Shown here piece by piece: positions 4,227-16,566 of a stretch of DNA of 34,462 nucleotides. The DNA lies in the UHGV virus genome UHGV-1637875; one strand, given 5' to 3'. Position numbers and translations under genes: made by a program. Within the stretch, counting starts at the first letter, position 1; each line of letters opens with the position of its first letter. Under the pieces are notes generated by a model that saw nothing but the letters and a program-made list of their open reading frames with translations, was not told where the DNA came from and searched no databases. Origin of the DNA: a virus.

Positions 4227-5342
4227 TTAAACTTCTCTAAATTCTTGCCCAAACACTTTGCCAGTTTTAGAAGAGGCTTGTGTAGGAAGTACCATTATAT
4301 CTGGAGGTGAAGCCGATTCGCAGACATAATTAACGCGAATACCGTTGACGCCAAATTCGGCAGGTTTTGAAATGCCGCCATTTCTTGATACTTCAGAAAA
4401 GCTTAAATTTCTCATGCCGCCTTGACCTGCTTGGGCAGTTCTTTGTGCATATATCGTAAATCCTACTGCATTTTCAGGAACAACTACATAATCTTCTTTT
4501 AATTCCCAAGACCCAGCTTGCCCAGTAAACTCAGCTTGGGTCGAGGAAATATATCCATTTGATGCATCATAAAAACGAATAGATATATTTGTAGTTCCAA
4601 GATCAAGTAAATCAGCATCAGCATATAGTTGTGCTTTAAGATAAAGAACATCACCAGGAATTAAATTGTAGTCAGAAAGTTTACTTATAGCAGCTGAAGT
4701 TGGCAATCGCGCAATTTCATTATTAGTTCCTCCAACCGCAGACATAAATTGCTCAACGCTTTCGTATGTTCTTTTAGGAAATCCTGTAGCTCCGACGTCT
4801 TCTAAACTATCAAATACAACATCTAACATAGTTTGATAGTCATCTGTGCTTTTTCTATTACTTAGTTTAACATGCTCTAATGCGATAGCTCTTTTAGAAG
4901 AAGTGTAAAAAGCAGCATATGACACGTCAAATCTTGACAATACTGAATCTGATGGAAAAACTGAAGTTCCTGCTCCCCTTAACCAAGATACCACTTCAGG
5001 AGGAAAATTAACCTTTCCGCTAGTTAATATAGCAACAAGTCTATTGTTTGACAAAGAATTCATGAAACTGACAAAAGCGGCAGATGTTGTATTGTTTGAA
5101 GCAGAAAAAGCATATGACTTGCTATCAACTAATGCTCCCGTAGAAGGGTCAAAAACTCTTAAATGAAGACCTGCACTAAATGTTTGATTTCCAACGGGAT
5201 TATCCTGAAATTTAACATATGGTCCCGCAGTAGAAAGCGGGCAAGAACCCGCTATGCTTATTTTATATCTTACTGAATTGCTTTCCGATAAAAATGGCGT
5301 TTGGACATATCCTTGTCCAAACTCTGCCATAAATTTTTCCAT
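4227..5342 (-). CDS. 35: Long tail fibre hinge/connector gp35
   Basis: 371-aa ORF (T4 gp35 is about 372 aa) between genes 34 and 36; AGAGG ribosome-binding site. Confidence 0.85.
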   Translation of the reverse strand: MEKFMAEFGQGYVQTPFLSESNSVRYKISIAGSCPLSTAGPYVKFQDNPVGNQTFSAGLHLRVFDPSTGALVDSKSYAFSASNNTTSAAFVSFMNSLSNNRLVAILTSGKVNFPPEVVSWLRGAGTSVFPSDSVLSRFDVSYAAFYTSSKRAIALEHVKLSNRKSTDDYQTMLDVVFDSLEDVGATGFPKRTYESVEQFMSAVGGTNNEIARLPTSAAISKLSDYNLIPGDVLYLKAQLYADADLLDLGTTNISIRFYDASNGYISSTQAEFTGQAGSWELKEDYVVVPENAVGFTIYAQRTAQAGQGGMRNLSFSEVSRNGGISKPAEFGVNGIRVNYVCESASPPDIMVLPTQASSKTGKVFGQEFREV

Positions 5343-5350
5343 AATACCTC

Positions 5351-8300
5351 TTATTCAATCCACTCAAATTTAACAGTTTTATTCACTGGGTCAGGAATAA
5401 TGCGAACATTACCAATTCGCAAGAAATCGCGAATAGTAAGATTACCTATTATTCCATTATCAGATGGGATCGCTCCTATATCTGAAGGTTGAGGAGGGTT
5501 ACCTCCGTCAAATACCTGAACAAAACTTGACCAAGAATTTTTAGTTTTCTGCCATGTACGTGTCCAGCGAGTGGTACGTGCTTCTGGGGTCGTTGGATAA
5601 GTAATCCAATCTTGGTAAAGTGAATCAAGTGTGTTACCAAACTGAGTCAATGTACCAGGAGATTTAACTTCTTCACCACGCTCCAAATAAGGAAGTCCAG
5701 TAACTTCGCTAGTTTTTTCAACCATTTTAAAATAACCTGGGAACTGGTTATAAGTAGCTGAATCATTAATATCAATTGACCAGAATCCTACAGTATCAGG
5801 TGTTGGCGCACGGGTATATAAATCAGAGGTTTTAGTACCCTGAGAACGAATTCTCGAGTTAACAGTCAAACCACCTGAATTTATAGTAGCACCTTTGGCG
5901 ATGATTAAGCTTTCACCAATCGTTACTTGACCAGATGCATTATTAATAGCTAATGGACGTAATCCATTAAATCCGCCACTCTGATCACCCGATGCAGTGA
6001 GCATAAAATTCGTTACTGACCCGTCATTGCGAACAATGAAACCATAATTTCCGTTAATAGCACGGAAAGCATTTGCGCTTCGAGAAATAATTTCACCAGT
6101 TGCAGTGACTGAATTACCAAATGTTGCTACACCATTTGCATTCAATGTTCCTGAAGCATTAACATTTATCGGTGTTACTGTGCCGTTGATATTAAATGTT
6201 ATATTTCCAGCTTTATTACGCTGAGAATAAAAATGACTAGACGTTTCATCACTAACTTCAAATACGGTAGAACGTGTTGTGTCTGATTCCCCGCTAAATT
6301 GATTTCCCCACACTCTGACTGTCATCGTTTGAGCTGGGTTCGTCCCAGTTTGAGGTCCTTTTTCAAAAATCAGACGAGTTGCCGTTCCAGTATTAGAAAT
6401 AGTTAGTGTACTATTTGCTGAAACTGATCCACCAAACGTAGCAGTACTAGATGATACAAGAGGGGCACTCAGGTTCGTTTGTTTGGTTAAGGTTAGTGAA
6501 CCATTAACTGTCTGGGCAATATCCCTACGAATGAACTGAGATGAATCTAGACCATCTAATAAATTTGCGTCAGCAGCTTTTGCTTTTAACGGCAAATAAT
6601 TTGCTAATACACGGTTTAATTCATATGGTGATACTGCATAACCATTTTTCTCATATAGTTCTAAGTCCTGCGTAGAACCAGCTGTATCATTACCAACGAA
6701 CGTAATTGAACCAGATGAGGTTTTAACAAAACCTCTTATCGCAGTAGTAGCTGCCCAAGTAGGTTCACTCTGCACAATCCATTTTAAATTTTTTGGAGAT
6801 ACAGCAGTATTTGCTGACGTTCCAGTCACGGTTTCAGACTGAGTTGCAACTTTAATAACACCTTCTTGCGATTCGGTAGATTTAGTACCTAAAAGCTTTT
6901 TAGGAGTTATTAAAACATTATCTAATTTTCCTGCAGCAGCTTCAACTTGTGTAGCTACACGAAGTGTACCACGTTGTGTCTCATTTGCTTCAAGAATATT
7001 AAGGGTATAATGGTCCCAGAGAGTTCCTGATTCAACTAATCCAGATAGAGCAACAACAGAAGTACGATCAGTACTATTAAATCTAGTTTTAATTTTTAAT
7101 GGTGTAGAGATACGAGTATCGTCGACGCCTGCGTCGAATTCAACTTGTGTAGCAATTTCAGCTATACCACTTAAACTTTCAGTTGCTCTACGGTTATTTA
7201 AAGTTTTAGGAGTGACTGCGCGAGTATAATCAGTTCCTGTATTAACTTCACTTTGCGTAGCAATTTCAATTAAACCAATTCTTCTATCAGTTGATGTCTT
7301 TTTATGTAACGTTTCTGGCGTTACAACCGCATTTGCCCATCCTTCTTGGCTTTGTCCAGCAATTACTTCACTTTCAACTGCTAAAATTACTGCACCTTGC
7401 TGTGTTGGAGTAGCTTTATACTGATCCAGTGCTTTAGGCGAAACAACTAAATTATTAGTGTTTTTATTGTAAACATTTGTACCATTTAATTCACGACTAG
7501 AAGCTGGGGTAGCTCCTGCGGTAGATACAAAAGTTACAATACCTGATAATGATTCAGAACCTTGACGAGCTTGAAGCTTTTTAGGAGTGATGATTGTAGT
7601 ATCATCGATACCTGTATTAGTTTCCTGCTGCGTAGCAATTTCAGCAACACCTCTACGAGTTTCTGTAGCAGTTCTTTCATTCAGCTTTTTAGGAGTGATG
7701 ATAAGGTCATCAGCAAAAGAGAATGTAGTGTTCTGATTTACTTGAGCAGTAGTTGCTATTCTTGCGATACCTCTACGAGTTTCTGTAGCAGTACGGTTAG
7801 CTAATGTTTCTGGAGTAATTGCTAATTCTTTTTGTGGAGAATTTTCTAAATCGACGTTAGCTTGGGCTTGTGTAGCTAAAGCAATTACGCCTAATCTTGC
7901 TCTAGTAGAATTATTTAAAGAATCGACTCTTTCAACTGTTGGAACGTTTTGTTGTACTACCCAGTATTTTCCGTCAGAATCTTCAATATAAGCAAGCTGT
8001 AAAACTGGAACATAATTAGTTTCACCGTTAAAAACTAATTCTTGAACAGTCACCCATTCAGCTTCAGGTTGATATTCTGAGCGTTTTGGGAATTGCAGCA
8101 ATTGAACTGAAGAAGCAATTTTATCTTCACCGGCAGCTTTGATTTTAACTGTTTGTCCTTTTCTCATGTAATTCATGGAAATTTTAACAGTATCACCAAC
8201 AGAAATATTAGTTGGAAGCTGAAGTTCAATCGTTTGAGTTGTTCCATTATTCGCACCAAATACCATAACTTCTTCATTTGGACGAATGTTTGAATTAGTC

Positions 8301-11487: not shown

Positions 11488-12117
11488 ATGAATATAGTAT
11501 ATTGGTTTACATTTGAAGACCGTGTCAAAAATAAGACTCCGCCATACTACTATATCGGTAGTAAATTAAATTGCTCATTTGAGAACGGAATAATATATGA
11601 CTCTTCCAGAAAGGAATACTGGAGCTCATGTAAACAAAAAAGATTTTTGAATGCGCTAATGCTTCAAAAACCGAGCGTTAAAATAATTCAAATTGATGAT
11701 GACTTGGATGTTATTGAAGCAGAACGAAAATACCAACTTGAAGTAAATGCCAGAGATAATCCAGACTATTTTAATCTGGTATATGCTGGTGGTGGATTTG
11801 GTGTGAGTGGTGAAACTCATCCAGCCAAAGACCCGGAAGTTAGAGAGCATATGAGATTGGCTAATTATATGAACCGTGACGATTTTAGACCTTGGAAAAC
11901 ATCACGAGCTAATATAGAGTCTTGGAAATTATCTCATATTGCTTACGAGAATTATGTGTTATTATCCTCTAATCTGTACGGTAAAACTCCTGGATGGCGA
12001 AGAGTTAAAGGTAATATAAATATAACTGATACAACTGCTAAATCGATGGTAAAGTATTTCAACTCAGGTTGGATACCTCTCGAAGACCCAGAGTATTGCG
12101 AATTATGCCAGCTATGA
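11488..12117 (+). CDS. segG: Putative GIY-YIG-family homing endonuclease (SegG-like, between genes 59 and 32)
   Basis: 209-aa ORF with N-terminal IVYWFTF...YYYIGSK resembling a degenerate GIY...YIG module. It occupies the slot between genes 59 and 32 where T4 carries segG. Motif match is imperfect, so confidence is moderate. Confidence 0.5.
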   Translation: MNIVYWFTFEDRVKNKTPPYYYIGSKLNCSFENGIIYDSSRKEYWSSCKQKRFLNALMLQKPSVKIIQIDDDLDVIEAERKYQLEVNARDNPDYFNLVYAGGGFGVSGETHPAKDPEVREHMRLANYMNRDDFRPWKTSRANIESWKLSHIAYENYVLLSSNLYGKTPGWRRVKGNINITDTTAKSMVKYFNSGWIPLEDPEYCELCQL

Positions 12118-12166: not shown

Positions 12167-13072
12167 ATGTTTAAACGTAAATCTACTGCTGAACTTGCTG
12201 CACAAATGGCTAAACTGAATGGCAATAAAGGTTTTTCTTCTGAAGATAAAGGCGAGTGGAAACTGAAACTCGATAATGCGGGTAACGGTCAAGCAGTAAT
12301 TCGTTTTCTTCCGTCTAAAAATGATGAACAAGCACCATTCGCAATTCTTGTAAATCACGGTTTCAAGAAAAATGGTAAATGGTATATTGAAACATGTTCA
12401 TCTACCCACGGTGATTACGATTCTTGTCCAGTATGTCAATACATCAGTAAAAATGATCTGTACAACACTGACAATAAAGAGTACAGTCTTGTTAAACGTA
12501 AAACTTCTTACTGGGCTAATATTCTTGTTGTAAAAGACCCAGCTGCTCCAGAAAATGAAGGTAAAGTATTTAAATATCGTTTCGGTAAGAAAATCTGGGA
12601 TAAAATCAACGCGATGATTGCGGTTGATGTTGAAATGGGTGAAACTCCAGTTGATGTAACTTGTCCGTGGGAAGGTGCTAACTTTGTACTGAAAGTTAAA
12701 CAAGTTTCTGGTTTTAGTAACTACGACGAATCTAAATTCCTGAATCAATCTGCGATTCCAAACATTGATGATGAATCTTTCCAGAAAGAACTGTTCGAAC
12801 AAATGGTTGACCTTTCTGAAATGACTTCTAAAGATAAATTCAAATCGTTTGAAGAACTGAGCACTAAGTTCAGTCAAGTTATGGGAACTGCTGCTATGGG
12901 TGGTGCCGCAGCAACTGCCGCTAAGAAAGCTGATAAAGTTGCTGATGATTTGGATGCATTCAATGTTGATGACTTCAATACAAAAACTGAAGATGATTTT
13001 ATGAGCTCAAGCTCTGGCAGTTCATCTAGTGCTGATGACACGGACCTGGATGACCTTTTGAATGACCTTTAA
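12167..13072 (+). CDS. 32: Single-stranded DNA-binding protein gp32
   Basis: 301 aa, [49 protein letters not shown]..., acidic C-terminal tail ([22 protein letters not shown]); essentially T4 gp32. Confidence 0.95.
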
Positions 13073-13094
13073 TAGACTATATTACTAATTAATT

Positions 13095-13119
13095 GGGGAC
13101 CCTAGAGGTCCCCTTTTTT
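13095..13119 (+). terminator. Rho-independent terminator after gene 32
   Basis: ggggacc-ctaga-ggtcccc followed by tttttt. Confidence 0.8.
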
Positions 13120-13145
13120 ATTTCAAAAATTTTTTCACAAAACGG

Positions 13146-13174
13146 TTTACAACCAAAGCATACTGTGGTACTAT
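13146..13174 (+). promoter_or_regulatory. Early promoter
   Basis: gTTTACA, 17-bp spacer, TACTAT preceded by gtg; upstream of the 75-aa ORF. Confidence 0.5.
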
Positions 13175-13217
13175 ACAACTATCGGCAATACTGCTGATGA
13201 TTAAAGAGGAAAATAAT

Positions 13218-13445
13218 ATGGCTAAAATTGATATTGATGTTGTTGATTTTGAATATATTGAAGAAATTATTCGTAATCGTTATCCTGAACTTAGTATCAT
13301 AAGCGCACTAAATGATCCTAATTGTAATGTTTCAGTTGTTATTGAAGGTCCTTTAAATCGTCTTAAACAGTTTATGGTTAATGAATACTGCGACGGTATG
13401 GATGCTGAAGATATAGAATTTTACACAGGATTTATTGAACAGTAA
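13218..13445 (+). CDS. Small early hypothetical protein (frd-32 accessory region); paralog of the 13928-14143 ORF
   Basis: 75 aa from the ATG at 13218 with an AGAGGA ribosome-binding site; [26 protein letters not shown]...NEYCDGM.... Confidence 0.7.
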
Positions 13446-13451
13446 TTATCA

Positions 13452-13469
13452 AGGGGCTATCAAGCCCCT
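13452..13469 (+). promoter_or_regulatory. Intercistronic GC-rich hairpin
   Basis: aggggct-atca-agcccct, a perfect 7-bp stem with no U-run, between two small ORFs. Confidence 0.4.
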
Positions 13470-13489
13470 ATTAAAATGAGGAAAACGCA

Positions 13490-13870
13490 ATGTATACTGG
13501 TAAAAAGTATGAACTTATTCCAAGACTTATTGATACATTTATTAATTATAGCCCGTGTTCTAATTCATCAATAGTTAAAGCCATTCGAGATAATGGCGGA
13601 TGGTTTGAAGTTAAAGAAGTTTCCGTCGCTAATGGATATAAAGCAGTAAAACACATTGAATGCGCAAATGGAAAGCATTTTTACCTCAAAGATAGACTTT
13701 TAGAAATTTGCGAAGACGAATTTCATTGTTTTCGTGAGTATAAAGAACCGACTTCTGAAAAAGATGAAGTCAAAGACCCGGTTTCTGGCGTAACAAAAAT
13801 TCACTGCATTGTAGACGAAAACAATGTAGATGAAATCATTGAACTTTTGCGAAAAACTTTCAAAAAGTAG
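13490..13870 (+). CDS. Hypothetical early protein
   Basis: 126-aa ORF with GAGG 8 nt upstream of the ATG; cysteine-rich (several CxxC-like pairs), no family recognised. Confidence 0.65.
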   Translation: MYTGKKYELIPRLIDTFINYSPCSNSSIVKAIRDNGGWFEVKEVSVANGYKAVKHIECANGKHFYLKDRLLEICEDEFHCFREYKEPTSEKDEVKDPVSGVTKIHCIVDENNVDEIIELLRKTFKK

Positions 13871-13904
13871 TTTACAGAAGGGTAGTAGTGTGATACTATT
13901 ACCC
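13871..13904 (+). promoter_or_regulatory. Early promoter with -10 box nested in a stem-loop (PeSL-type)
   Basis: gTTTACA (13870-13876), 17-bp spacer, TACTAT (13894-13899); dyad gggtagtag (13880-13888) / ctattaccc (13896-13904). Confidence 0.6.
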
Positions 13905-13927
13905 TATCAATTACATGGGGAAAATAA

Positions 13928-14143
13928 ATGGCTAAGGTTAATATTGATATTGTTGATTTTGAATACACTTACGAAGTTATCCGCAATCGTTATCCTTCTT
14001 TGAGTATGGCTTACATTAAAGATACCCAATTCTTTAGTATTCAAATTGAAGTCCAAGGTCCTCTTGAAGACCTTATCAGTTTTATGACCAATGAGTATTG
14101 TGATGGCATGTATCCTGAAGATGCTAAATTTATATGGGCTTAA
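13928..14143 (+). CDS. Small early hypothetical protein; paralog of the 13218-13445 ORF
   Basis: 71 aa, [26 protein letters not shown]...NEYCDGM..., about half the residues shared with the 75-aa ORF. Confidence 0.7.
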
Positions 14144-14157
14144 TTCAAAAATAAATG

Positions 14158-14190
14158 TTTACAACAGGCTATGGTAATGATACTATAGCC
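14158..14190 (+). promoter_or_regulatory. Early promoter with -10 box nested in a stem-loop (PeSL-type)
   Basis: gTTTACA (14157-14163), 17-bp spacer, TACTAT (14181-14186); dyad ggctatggta (14167-14176) / tactatagcc (14181-14190). Confidence 0.6.
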
Positions 14191-14212
14191 TTATCAACTT
14201 GAGGAGAATAAA

Positions 14213-14455
14213 ATGAGATTACAACGCCATAGCATCAAAGATTCGGAAGTTAGAGGTAAATGGTATTTTAATATCATCGGTAAAGATTCTGAACTTGTTG
14301 AAAAAGCTGAACATCTTTTACGTGACATGGGATGGGAAGATGAATGTGATGGATGTCCTCTTTATGAAGACGGAGAAAGCGCAGGATTCTGGATTTACCA
14401 TTCTGACGTCGAGCAGTTTAAAGCTGATTGGAAAATTGTGAAAAAGTCTGTTTAA
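14213..14455 (+). CDS. Hypothetical early protein
   Basis: 80-aa ORF with a GAGGAG ribosome-binding site. Confidence 0.65.
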   Translation: MRLQRHSIKDSEVRGKWYFNIIGKDSELVEKAEHLLRDMGWEDECDGCPLYEDGESAGFWIYHSDVEQFKADWKIVKKSV

Positions 14456-14465
14456 GGAAAATAAT

Positions 14466-15292
<827 letters not shown>

Positions 15293-15312
15293 AATAACGC
15301 GTGGCGGAAAAT

Positions 15313-15660
15313 ATGAACTTTAATTATTACCCTATTCTATTAGAAAAAGACGCGAAACAACCAAAATGGCAGGGTCCTCAGTTTATTAAAGGCGTCTATC
15401 AATTAGTAGTTCCTAAAGACAAGATTTATAGTAGTTGTTTCACTGAATCCGCTTGCAGTATTTTCGGTAATAGTTCTCCGTATTGGAATTTTGATATAAA
15501 ACTGGATAGAAATATCGATATTTGGTTGAAAGCCATGGATATTGGCAATATTACGTTTGATGAGAATAATTATCATATTATTGGTCGCTTTTCTAAACGC
15601 GGTAAAGAATTATATTTCACTCCTGAAATCGAAAGAAAATTTGATGCTAAACCGTATTGA
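15313..15660 (+). CDS. Hypothetical protein encoded by an insertion between frd and td
   Basis: 115-aa ORF from the ATG at 15313 (MNFNYYPILLEKDAKQPKWQGPQF...); no motif recognised; weak ribosome-binding site. T4 has no gene here because frd and td overlap. Confidence 0.55.
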   Translation: MNFNYYPILLEKDAKQPKWQGPQFIKGVYQLVVPKDKIYSSCFTESACSIFGNSSPYWNFDIKLDRNIDIWLKAMDIGNITFDENNYHIIGRFSKRGKELYFTPEIERKFDAKPY

Positions 15661-15705: not shown

Positions 15706-16566
15706 ATGAAACAATACCAAGATTTAATTAAAGACATTTTTGAAAATGGCTATGAAACCGATGATCGAACAGGCACAGGAACAATTGCTTTGTTCGGTAC
15801 TAAATTACGCTGGGATTTAAGTAAAGGTTTTCCTGCAGTAACAACTAAAAAGCTCGCCTGGAAAGCTTGCATTGCTGAGCTACTTTGGTTTTTATCAGGA
15901 AGCACAAATGTCAATGATTTACGATTAATTCAGCATGATTCATTAATTCAAGGCAAAACAGTCTGGGATGAAAATTACGAAAATCAAGCAAAAGATTTAG
16001 GATACCACATCGGTGAACTTGGTCCAATTTATGGAAAACAATGGCGTGATTTTGGCGGTGTAGACCAAATTGTAGAAGTTATTGATCGTATTAAAAAACT
16101 GCCGAATGATAGGCGACAAATTGTTTCTGCGTGGAATCCAGCTGAACTTAAATATATGGCATTACCGCCTTGTCATATGTTCTATCAGTTTAATGTGCGT
16201 AATGGCTATTTGGATTTGCAGTGGTATCAACGATCAGTAGATGTTTTTCTTGGTCTTCCATTTAATATTGCATCATATGCTGCGTTAGTTCATATTGTAG
16301 CTAAGATGTGTAATCTTATTCCTGGAGATTTGATATTTTCTGGCGGTAATACTCATATCTATATGAATCACGTAGAACAATGTAAAGAAATTTTACGTCG
16401 TGAACCTAAAGAGCTTTGTGAACTGGTAATAGGCGGATTGCCTTATAAATTCCGTTATCTTTCTACTAAAGAACAATTGGAATACATTCTTAAACTCAGG
16501 CCTAAAGATTTCGTTCTCAAAGATTATCAGTCCCACGGTGTCTTGAAAGGAAAAATGGCGGTATAA
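15706..16566 (+). CDS. td: Thymidylate synthase, intronless
   Basis: 286 aa, MKQYQDLIKDIFENGYETDDRTGTGTIALFG...; uninterrupted ORF, so the group I intron and its endonuclease ORF seen in T4 td are absent. Confidence 0.95.
   Translation: MKQYQDLIKDIFENGYETDDRTGTGTIALFGTKLRWDLSKGFPAVTTKKLAWKACIAELLWFLSGSTNVNDLRLIQHDSLIQGKTVWDENYENQAKDLGYHIGELGPIYGKQWRDFGGVDQIVEVIDRIKKLPNDRRQIVSAWNPAELKYMALPPCHMFYQFNVRNGYLDLQWYQRSVDVFLGLPFNIASYAALVHIVAKMCNLIPGDLIFSGGNTHIYMNHVEQCKEILRREPKELCELVIGGLPYKFRYLSTKEQLEYILKLRPKDFVLKDYQSHGVLKGKMAV

Follow-up and report, generated by a model that had tools for sequence, protein, structure and literature searches.

A second frd.3 allele in the early region of a T4-like phage was probably acquired laterally from another genus

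How does a phage genome come to carry two diverged homologs of the same small early gene? The question is raised by the viral genome sequence UHGV-1637875 (34,462 nucleotides [nt]; the window hereafter means this whole stretch), in which two frd.3 genes lie 710 bp apart on the same strand with an unrelated gene between them. An earlier note, made from the sequence alone, had proposed that the pair arose by tandem duplication in place and then diverged under host-driven diversifying selection. The comparisons described here argue instead that the two genes are probably two old allele lineages, one of which was laterally acquired. The window comes from a Tequatrovirus (T4-like coliphage), as approximately 95% of its first 24 kb aligns at approximately 96% identity to phages such as ES12 and VEc20. 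The frd.3 pair is in the variable early region between gene 32 (12167–13072, identified by its match to Pfam model PF08804) and frd (14711–15292, which encodes dihydrofolate reductase). On the + strand the order is gene 32, a terminator hairpin, early promoter Pe1, frd.3 copy 1, a hairpin, frd.2, early promoter Pe2, frd.3 copy 2, early promoter Pe3, frd.1, an open reading frame (ORF) of 81 amino acids (aa), and frd. The four genes on which the argument turns are the following.

13218..13445, + strand: frd.3 copy 1, 75 aa, resident allele of Tequatrovirus, placed as in T4 between gene 32 and frd.2 (alignment, Pfam, AlphaFold2)
13490..13870, + strand: frd.2, 126 aa, PF03197, unrelated to Frd.3 and without a promoter of its own (Pfam and PHROG matches, hhalign)
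13928..14143, + strand: frd.3 copy 2, 71 aa, an allele of the Dhakavirus/Gaprivervirus type upstream of frd.1, with codons 1–68 intact and a frameshifted tail
14213..14455, + strand: frd.1, 80 aa, DUF5417, a Tequatrovirus-type coding sequence that forms the right flank of the cassette

Both ORFs of the pair are present where the earlier note had placed them, and they belong to one family. A BLASTP comparison aligns them without gaps over residues 1–68 with 35 of 68 residues identical (51%) and 47 of 68 positive (E value 1e-25); the shared half of the residues that had been noted extends over the full length and is not confined to a low-complexity N-terminus. Both copies match phrog_1764 and the Pfam model PF05798 (Phage_FRD3, T4 Frd.3), copy 1 with 110.5 bits and copy 2 with 111.6 bits against a gathering cut-off of 28.1. 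Of the 75 positions in this profile, copy 1 covers 1–75 and copy 2 covers 1–68 because a 1-nt deletion swaps YMGLIQK for IWA, which leaves copy 2 with 71 aa where its relatives have 75 aa and without the seven conserved C-terminal residues of the T4 Frd.3 family (the conserved C-terminal motif of PF05798 is F-Y-x-G-L-I). An additional in-frame ATG is present upstream of copy 1 at 13197; the start at 13218 is preceded by AAAGAGGAAA and agrees with the family N-terminus MAK(V/I)(D/N)ID. The two copies share family, size, early promoter context, and gene 32–frd neighborhood with Frd.3 of T4 (UniProt P39508; PF05798; phrog_1764), but T4 and nearly all of its relatives have a single frd.3, whereas the window phage has two, from two allele lineages. 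Frd.2 had been regarded as unrelated to its neighbors, and profile-profile comparison of Frd.2 with Frd.3 indeed found no relationship (hhalign probability 0.2%). The Frd.3 family is tiny and phage-only: an exhaustive profile search returned just nine representatives, and no relatives were found in bacterial genomes. One of the nine, P0047 (2,044 aa, Cys-rich, with tandem repeats of approximately 90 aa and 11 matched stretches), was judged spurious; its match rests on a repeated Y-x-S-x-K-Y-C-E-A-M motif, the K-Y-C-E-A-M part of which resembles the NEYCDGM of the two copies.

To which alleles is copy 2 most closely related? A tblastn search with copy 2 as the query matched 733 phage records at 736 places, indicating that two frd.3 copies are exceptional. 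Only one of the 733 records, the isolated phage VEc74, has an identical copy, and it is also the only one with a Dhakavirus-type copy in a Tequatrovirus backbone. The next-best matches come from the single frd.3 genes that Dhakavirus and Gaprivervirus phages carry (JS98, JS10, VR7, VR25, IME341, and TH15 among them), with 84–91% aa and 88–91% nt identity (86–90% nt among the search matches), whereas copy 2 has 64% nt identity to copy 1 and 73–76% to other Tequatrovirus alleles. Gene order is consistent with this affinity. Tequatrovirus and S16-like phages have the order 32-frd.3-frd.2-frd.1, whereas Dhakavirus and Gaprivervirus have the order 32-frd.2-(orf)-frd.3-frd.1, and both slots are occupied in the window, in VEc74, and in two metagenomic genomes, L035 and L036 (labels of this form denote the loci that we compared). 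Because frd.3 of Dhakavirus and Gaprivervirus lies just upstream of frd.1, copy 2 occupies the slot of the donor genera. Duplication within the lineage followed by rapid divergence would be in line with two homologs that lie so close together in the same orientation behind similar leaders; however, copy 2 is much nearer the gene of another genus than it is to copy 1, its slot is the one native to the donor genera, and the number of synonymous substitutions per synonymous site (dS) between the copies is approximately 1.0, comparable to the backbone divergence between genera. We therefore regard the duplication proposed in the earlier note as unsupported and very improbable.

A third context for the gene is seen in Mosigvirus, where the frd.3 homolog (L032:3001-3228, ST0; L029 and L030) has no gp32, frd.2, or frd.1 within 2.5–3 kb, which implies that the unit has changed slots more than once. 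Members of PF05798 are thus typically, but not universally, located as both window copies are, in the early region that separates gene 32 from frd in T-even-type phages. In many Dhakavirus and Gaprivervirus loci it is frd.2 that is present in two copies (L003:1458-2216, L005, L013, L014, L017, and L018; frd.2a and frd.2b of JS98), and copy-number change of small early genes is therefore common in this region.

Synonymous divergence separates copy 2 from the genes around it. Between copy 2 and the frd.3 genes of Dhakavirus and Gaprivervirus dS is 0.33–0.46, whereas gp32, frd.1, frd.2, frd, and td have dS values from 0.74 to saturation against the same phages; for the adjacent frd.1, dS is 0.12 versus RB14 but 1.2–1.6 versus Dhakavirus and Gaprivervirus, and frd.2 is saturated against the latter. 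In a neighbor-joining tree copy 2 (from the window, VEc74, and an ENA contig) nests inside the Dhakavirus/Gaprivervirus clade, and the clade that excludes JS98 and QL01 has a bootstrap value of 100. From the closeness of copy 2 to Dhakavirus and Gaprivervirus genes, its position in their slot, its nesting in their clade, and its low dS relative to that of the flanking genes, we infer that copy 2 was laterally acquired and that the pair consists of two old allele lineages stacked by lateral recombination, a reading to which we give a probability of about 0.78. If the two-copy state were instead ancestral to T-even-like phages, Tequatroviruses would mostly have lost slot 2 and Dhakavirus and Gaprivervirus slot 1; this would account for the collinearity of the right half of the window locus (frd.2, promoter, frd.3, promoter, frd.1) with Gaprivervirus TH15, and loss through recombination between promoters or between copies does occur, as described later. 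However, the contrast in dS between copy 2 and its neighbors in the same genomes disfavors an ancestral pair, copy 2 is nested in rather than sister to the Dhakavirus/Gaprivervirus clade, and both copies are found together in one of 733 records plus a few metagenome contigs, with copy 2 nearly identical among the two-copy genomes (dS ≤0.03). An ancestral pair therefore seems improbable to us, if less so than a local duplication.

The early promoters of the locus bear on how copy 2 entered. The pattern GTTTAC-N18-TAYWAT occurs at five sites in the 34-kb window, all on the + strand, versus 0.04 expected by chance, and three of the five are at this locus (13145–13174, 13870–13899, and 14157–14186). 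These predicted promoters, Pe1, Pe2, and Pe3, all match TTTACW-N17-TAYWAT, the PST/T4 consensus for early promoters of the promoter/stem-loop (PeSL) type (PMC4122927), and each is followed by a Shine-Dalgarno sequence and a start codon. The promoters and hairpins are as follows.

13095..13113, + strand: intrinsic terminator hairpin of gene 32, GGGGACC-CTAGA-GGTCCCC followed by a T run, −14.3 kcal/mol
13145..13174, + strand: early promoter Pe1, GTTTACA, N17, and a TG-extended TACTAT, serving copy 1 and frd.2 (consensus)
13452..13469, + strand: GC-rich hairpin in the gap between copy 1 and frd.2, no T run downstream, −12.9 kcal/mol, z −2.4
13870..13899, + strand: early promoter Pe2, serving copy 2 (consensus)
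14157..14186, + strand: early promoter Pe3, serving frd.1, with a hairpin at 14166–14191, −14.7 kcal/mol, z −3.1 (consensus)

Each frd.3 copy thus has its own promoter of the T4 early type, Pe1 for copy 1 and Pe2 for copy 2, as the earlier note had suggested, and because frd.2 has none of its own, copy 1 and frd.2 form one transcription unit read from Pe1. The hairpin within this unit is probably an RNA stability or attenuation element of the Pe1 transcript. No MotA box or late promoter was found within 13050–14260. Pe2 and Pe3 form a direct repeat with a spacing of 287 bp. The terminator hairpin of gene 32 is the stem-loop of the Pe1 element and lies upstream of the promoter, whereas the hairpins of Pe2 and Pe3 are strong but span the spacer and −10 box; in Pe2 these are contained in a hairpin at 13877–13908 (−15.9 kcal/mol). 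The Pe2 hairpin reads GGGTAGTAG...CTATTACCC, and that of the frd.3 promoter in Dhakavirus and Gaprivervirus (L005:2460-2500 and L003:2470-2510) reads GGTCTATGG...TATAGACC; the stem is kept although the sequences differ, a hint of selection on the structure itself. In T4, both RNA and protein of frd.3 are early (PMC9697503, supplementary files 4 and 6), and the frd.3 transcript ranks with the most abundant T4 RNAs capped with nicotinamide adenine dinucleotide (bioRxiv 10.1101/2024.04.04.588121).

The junctions of the imported segment were placed from diagnostic sites, which delimit the following stretch.

13909..14212, + strand: putative imported segment of the Dhakavirus/Gaprivervirus type, running from the copy 2 leader through copy 2 and Pe3 to the frd.1 leader (CTTGAGGAG) (diagnostic sites)

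Past CCTATCAA the window sequence changes to a donor-type leader (TTACATG(A/G)GGAAAATAAATG), and at the other end the frd.1 leader is of the donor type, yet the frd.1 coding sequence is of the Tequatrovirus type. Presence or absence of the segment among close relatives is bounded by the promoter elements. RB14 lacks exactly the promoter-to-promoter unit; ECO78, which has a single copy with the same copy 1 allele, also lacks it, and there an identical Pe2 directly drives frd.1; in L008 and L013 an unrelated ORF occupies slot 2. Read from these junctions, the mode of entry is clear as to its class, a promoter-bounded modular shuffling of the PeSL type. During a mixed infection, homologous recombination would have carried a segment of approximately 300 bp (frd.3 with the copy 2 leader before it and, after it, the next early promoter and the leader of frd.1) into a Tequatrovirus by a double crossover, on the left between the −10 box and the Shine-Dalgarno sequence and on the right at the Shine-Dalgarno sequence/ATG of frd.1, both within short sequences common to all these early units. 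The recipient would end up with two old alleles, one per slot, each behind its own early promoter. Insertion through a mini-circle was considered as the entry route and is less likely than a double crossover with a coinfecting genome, as the frd.1 leader is also of the donor type. PeSL shuffling as described previously (Arbiol et al. 2010, PMC2839356; Comeau et al. 2014, PMC4122927) likewise involves genes that are bounded by repeated promoter/Shine-Dalgarno elements and are present or absent in relatives; the promoters here fit the same consensus, and the crossover zones are alike, since those of PeSL-mediated exchange lie between the −10 box and the Shine-Dalgarno sequence/ATG (PMC2839356). 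The two situations differ in that the gene inserted here is a homolog of a resident gene, so that alleles became stacked, and in that the hairpins of Pe2 and Pe3 are within the promoter, whereas the PeSL stem-loop is upstream of it.

Could the arrangement be an artefact of assembly? Reads of a co-occurring Dhakavirus might have been merged into a Tequatrovirus assembly at shared promoters, and the junctions do fall in short conserved motifs at which an assembler could switch templates. However, the same arrangement with the same junctions is present in VEc74, an isolated phage (MT932213.1, vec74_232 to vec74_229, in the order frd.3, frd.2, frd.3', frd.1), and in the independent metagenomic genomes L035 (a 63-kb contig) and L036 (a 168-kb contig that is collinear with the window at 97.4%); L019, which is partial, probably also has two copies. 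In VEc74 copy 2 is intact at 75 aa and identical to that of the window over 68 aa with one synonymous difference, copy 1 is an RB14-type allele with 76% aa identity to copy 1 of the window, and all four genes are annotated merely as hypothetical proteins. Copy 2 also differs by 9–12% from every sequenced Dhakavirus and Gaprivervirus, and a natural chimera of the two copies exists. We consider an assembly artefact the least probable of the explanations weighed here, practically negligible.

The copy 1 alleles of the two-copy metagenomic genomes differ from one another, being of the window type, the RB14 type, or a mosaic of the T4 and window types. Once stacked, the two copies would constitute a diverged direct repeat; recombination between them would remove frd.2 and give rise to chimeric alleles, and copy 2 would be lost by exchange between the promoters or leaders on its flanks. 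A natural Tequatrovirus contig (Logan SRR29999948_7620; L034:3001-3560) has one chimeric frd.3 that is of the T4 type of slot 1 through a shared TTTATG at codons 52–53 and of the slot 2 type thereafter, followed by Pe3 and frd.1 with frd.2 deleted; this chimera is the expected product of recombination between two frd.3 copies. In L023 (OIWM01000017.1), approximately 75 nt ahead of frd.1, there is a Pe2-type promoter with the copy 2-type leader CTACATGAGGA; the junction with frd.1 is at the Shine-Dalgarno sequence, and this frd.1 leader has the look of a scar left by excision of a copy 2. Losses of frd.2 or of copy 2 by recombination between copies or promoters fit the rarity of the two-copy state.

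Several observations weigh against the lateral origin or against what might be built on it. The donor is absent from the databases, and the 9–12% difference in DNA between copy 2 and the closest Dhakavirus and Gaprivervirus genes indicates that the transfer was not recent. The direction of transfer relies on the tree topology of a gene of 204 nt. Among Tequatroviruses the promoter and leader modules that precede frd.1 form a mosaic of several combinations, which makes the exact junctions uncertain; whether a single double crossover or a series of events took place is uncertain for the same reason. Pe2 and Pe3 do not have the upstream stem-loop required by the strict PeSL definition, their hairpins being inside the promoter. 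With regard to a host-specificity function of Frd.3, which is considered later, the overall ratio of nonsynonymous to synonymous substitution rates (omega, or dN/dS) is less than 1, and knock-down of T4 frd.3 had no fitness cost in the laboratory (PMC11879866).

The present state of copy 2 is a separate matter from its origin. Its tail was changed at one homopolymer.

14129..14131, + strand: T run with a 1-nt deletion, TTT where every relative has TTTT

This deletion turns YMGLIQK into IWA; the ancestral stop would be at 14152–14154. It is the sole single-nucleotide indel in coding sequence across 5.25 kb in the comparison with L036, and the frameshift is therefore probably real; sequencing error as its cause was set aside, as the less probable reading, on this ground. 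Compared with L035 and L036 the 68-codon body (204 nt) of copy 2 is identical, and its leader (13878–13925) differs by three substitutions and by the loss of 1 nt from an A run; one of the substitutions alters the Shine-Dalgarno sequence from GAGG to GGGG. The changes in the leader and at the 3' end may reflect attenuation or early decay. That copy 2 is now a non-functional, decaying remnant of the imported allele, which would be compatible with a lateral origin, is a possibility that we take seriously but hold to be the less probable one. In its favor, all differences from L035 and L036 are in the leader or the 3' tail, the Shine-Dalgarno sequence is among the sites changed, the last seven residues have been lost, including the near-invariant Y69 and the invariant I73, and AlphaFold2 is less confident of the last helix (63, down from 95). 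Yet 68 of the 75 codons survive without any nonsynonymous change, the promoter hexamers show no damage, the truncated protein is still predicted to adopt the fold, and one indel in a homopolymer could reflect an error of sequencing.

Is there evidence that host-driven selection shaped the two alleles? The family shows unusual allelic diversity, and to that extent the earlier note was right; however, Frd.3 is mostly under purifying selection, and its variation is focused in one β-hairpin. Whole-gene omega is 0.11–0.52 across pairs, 0.40 between copy 1 and copy 2, and 0.11–0.15 within the copy 2 clade. Sequence entropy is highest in the β2-turn-β3 hairpin (residues 26–44), with 1.2–1.6 bits versus 0.3–0.6 in the conserved elements, and omega of the hairpin segment varies by pair from 0.04 to 3.7, with a Fisher P value of 0.04–0.17 for the best case of 3.7. 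The hairpin is the one part of the gene in which omega comes near 1 or passes it, and it does so in some allele pairs only. Neither the gene nor the segment thus has a dN/dS significantly greater than 1. A centering of variability in one hairpin, with one allele pair reaching 3.7 there, would suit duplication followed by diversifying selection, but the low omega of the gene as a whole, lower still within the copy 2 clade, speaks against it, and the excess in the hairpin is not robust. Diversifying selection is possible, and with so small a sample and gene weak episodic selection may have gone unseen. Some Tequatrovirus alleles are distinguished by the hairpin patch alone. Between RB14-type and T4-type alleles, for instance, the N- and C-terminal segments have no aa differences and 0–2 synonymous differences, whereas the hairpin patch has an omega of 0.94 and raised dS; the confinement of the differences to one patch with raised dS indicates patch-wise recombination, which clearly accounts for part of the variation.

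Structure prediction, which the earlier note had recommended, gave a confident fold for copy 1, with a predicted local distance difference test (pLDDT) score of 93. The 8.8-kDa protein is modeled as a two-layer β-α-β-β-α-α, ferredoxin-like fold (β1, 2–8; α1, 11–21; β2, 26–32; β3, 38–44; α2, 46–57; α3, 63–70). Both copies are acidic, with isoelectric points of 4.05 and 4.13 and net charges of −11.5 (copy 1) and −7.5 (copy 2), and the invariant residues are largely charged (D7, D10, E12, E16, R19, R21, E56, E64, and D65; also Y13, Y57, and C58). Fold searches returned generic ferredoxin-like or split β-α-β matches and other Straboviridae Frd.3 proteins; there was no match to Frd.3 in the PDB and nothing significant in NCBIfam or PADLOC, and we found no literature on Frd.3 function. 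Together D7, D10, E12, E16, R19, R21, E56, Y57, C58, E64, and D65 could make up a candidate binding surface. We tentatively suggest that Frd.3 might be a non-enzymatic early protein that binds a host or phage macromolecule through this invariant charged surface while the hairpin tunes specificity, although the chance that this is right is clearly the smaller one. If the hairpin does tune specificity, two alleles could broaden the hosts or targets covered. Still more speculative, and in our view rather unlikely, is a role as a host-specificity or counter-defense factor, in which the β2-β3 hairpin would read a polymorphic host target, and alleles and hairpin patches would be exchanged between genera and sometimes stacked in pairs, in a balance between selection for breadth and recombinational loss. 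Arn and Ocr exemplify the small, acidic early proteins with which T-even and T7 phages counter restriction or take over the host. Proteins of this kind resemble Frd.3 in being early, small, strongly acidic, dispensable in laboratory hosts, and phage-only, but no sequence similarity to Frd.3 was detected and none is among the top fold matches listed, in which we found no structural resemblance of Frd.3 to DNA mimics or anti-restriction proteins. Knock-down of T4 frd.3 was scored 'Not Fit' (fitness −0.49, P = 0.86), whereas in the same genome-wide CRISPRi-ART knock-down frd.2, alone among T4 genes of unknown function, counted as a contributor to fitness ('Fit'; PMC11879866, supplementary file 15); the Frd.2 family has an LSm-like fold (PMC12152347).

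Other genes around the locus also vary. At 11488–12117 the window has a 209-aa ORF without a Pfam match in the position of the T4 homing endonuclease gene segG, between genes 59 and 32; this ORF is present in L036 and absent from VEc74, RB14, and ECO78. Immediately downstream of frd.1 (14466–14711) is the variable, very acidic 81-aa protein (phrog_3183, net charge −13), for which there is no space by T4 coordinates and in place of which RB14 has a different ORF. A variable 119-aa ORF occupies the interval between frd and td (15301–15660), and its RB14 counterpart is annotated with a flanking 9-bp repeat. Thymidylate synthase is encoded without a break in the window (15706–16566, 286 aa), whereas the gene is split in the closest metagenomic relatives (L034 to L036, approximately 5100–6249): in L035 and L036 the first part of td is followed by a gene for an I-TevI-type GIY-YIG endonuclease, that is, the td intron, and in L034 just two halves were seen.

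The finding is an ordinary instance of known cassette shuffling in a known family, and it leaves current understanding unchanged, as public records already contain the family and the mechanism and, in VEc74, even the arrangement. Within those bounds the frd.3 locus offers a clean, datable example of how T4-type phages accumulate accessory early genes, in which a promoter-bounded unit would have crossed between genera and landed beside its own homolog, and the resulting repeat now yields chimeras and loss of frd.2. At 75 aa, early, abundant, and phage-only, with a fold predicted at high confidence, a charged face that does not vary, and a single hypervariable hairpin, Frd.3 is a cheap experimental target.

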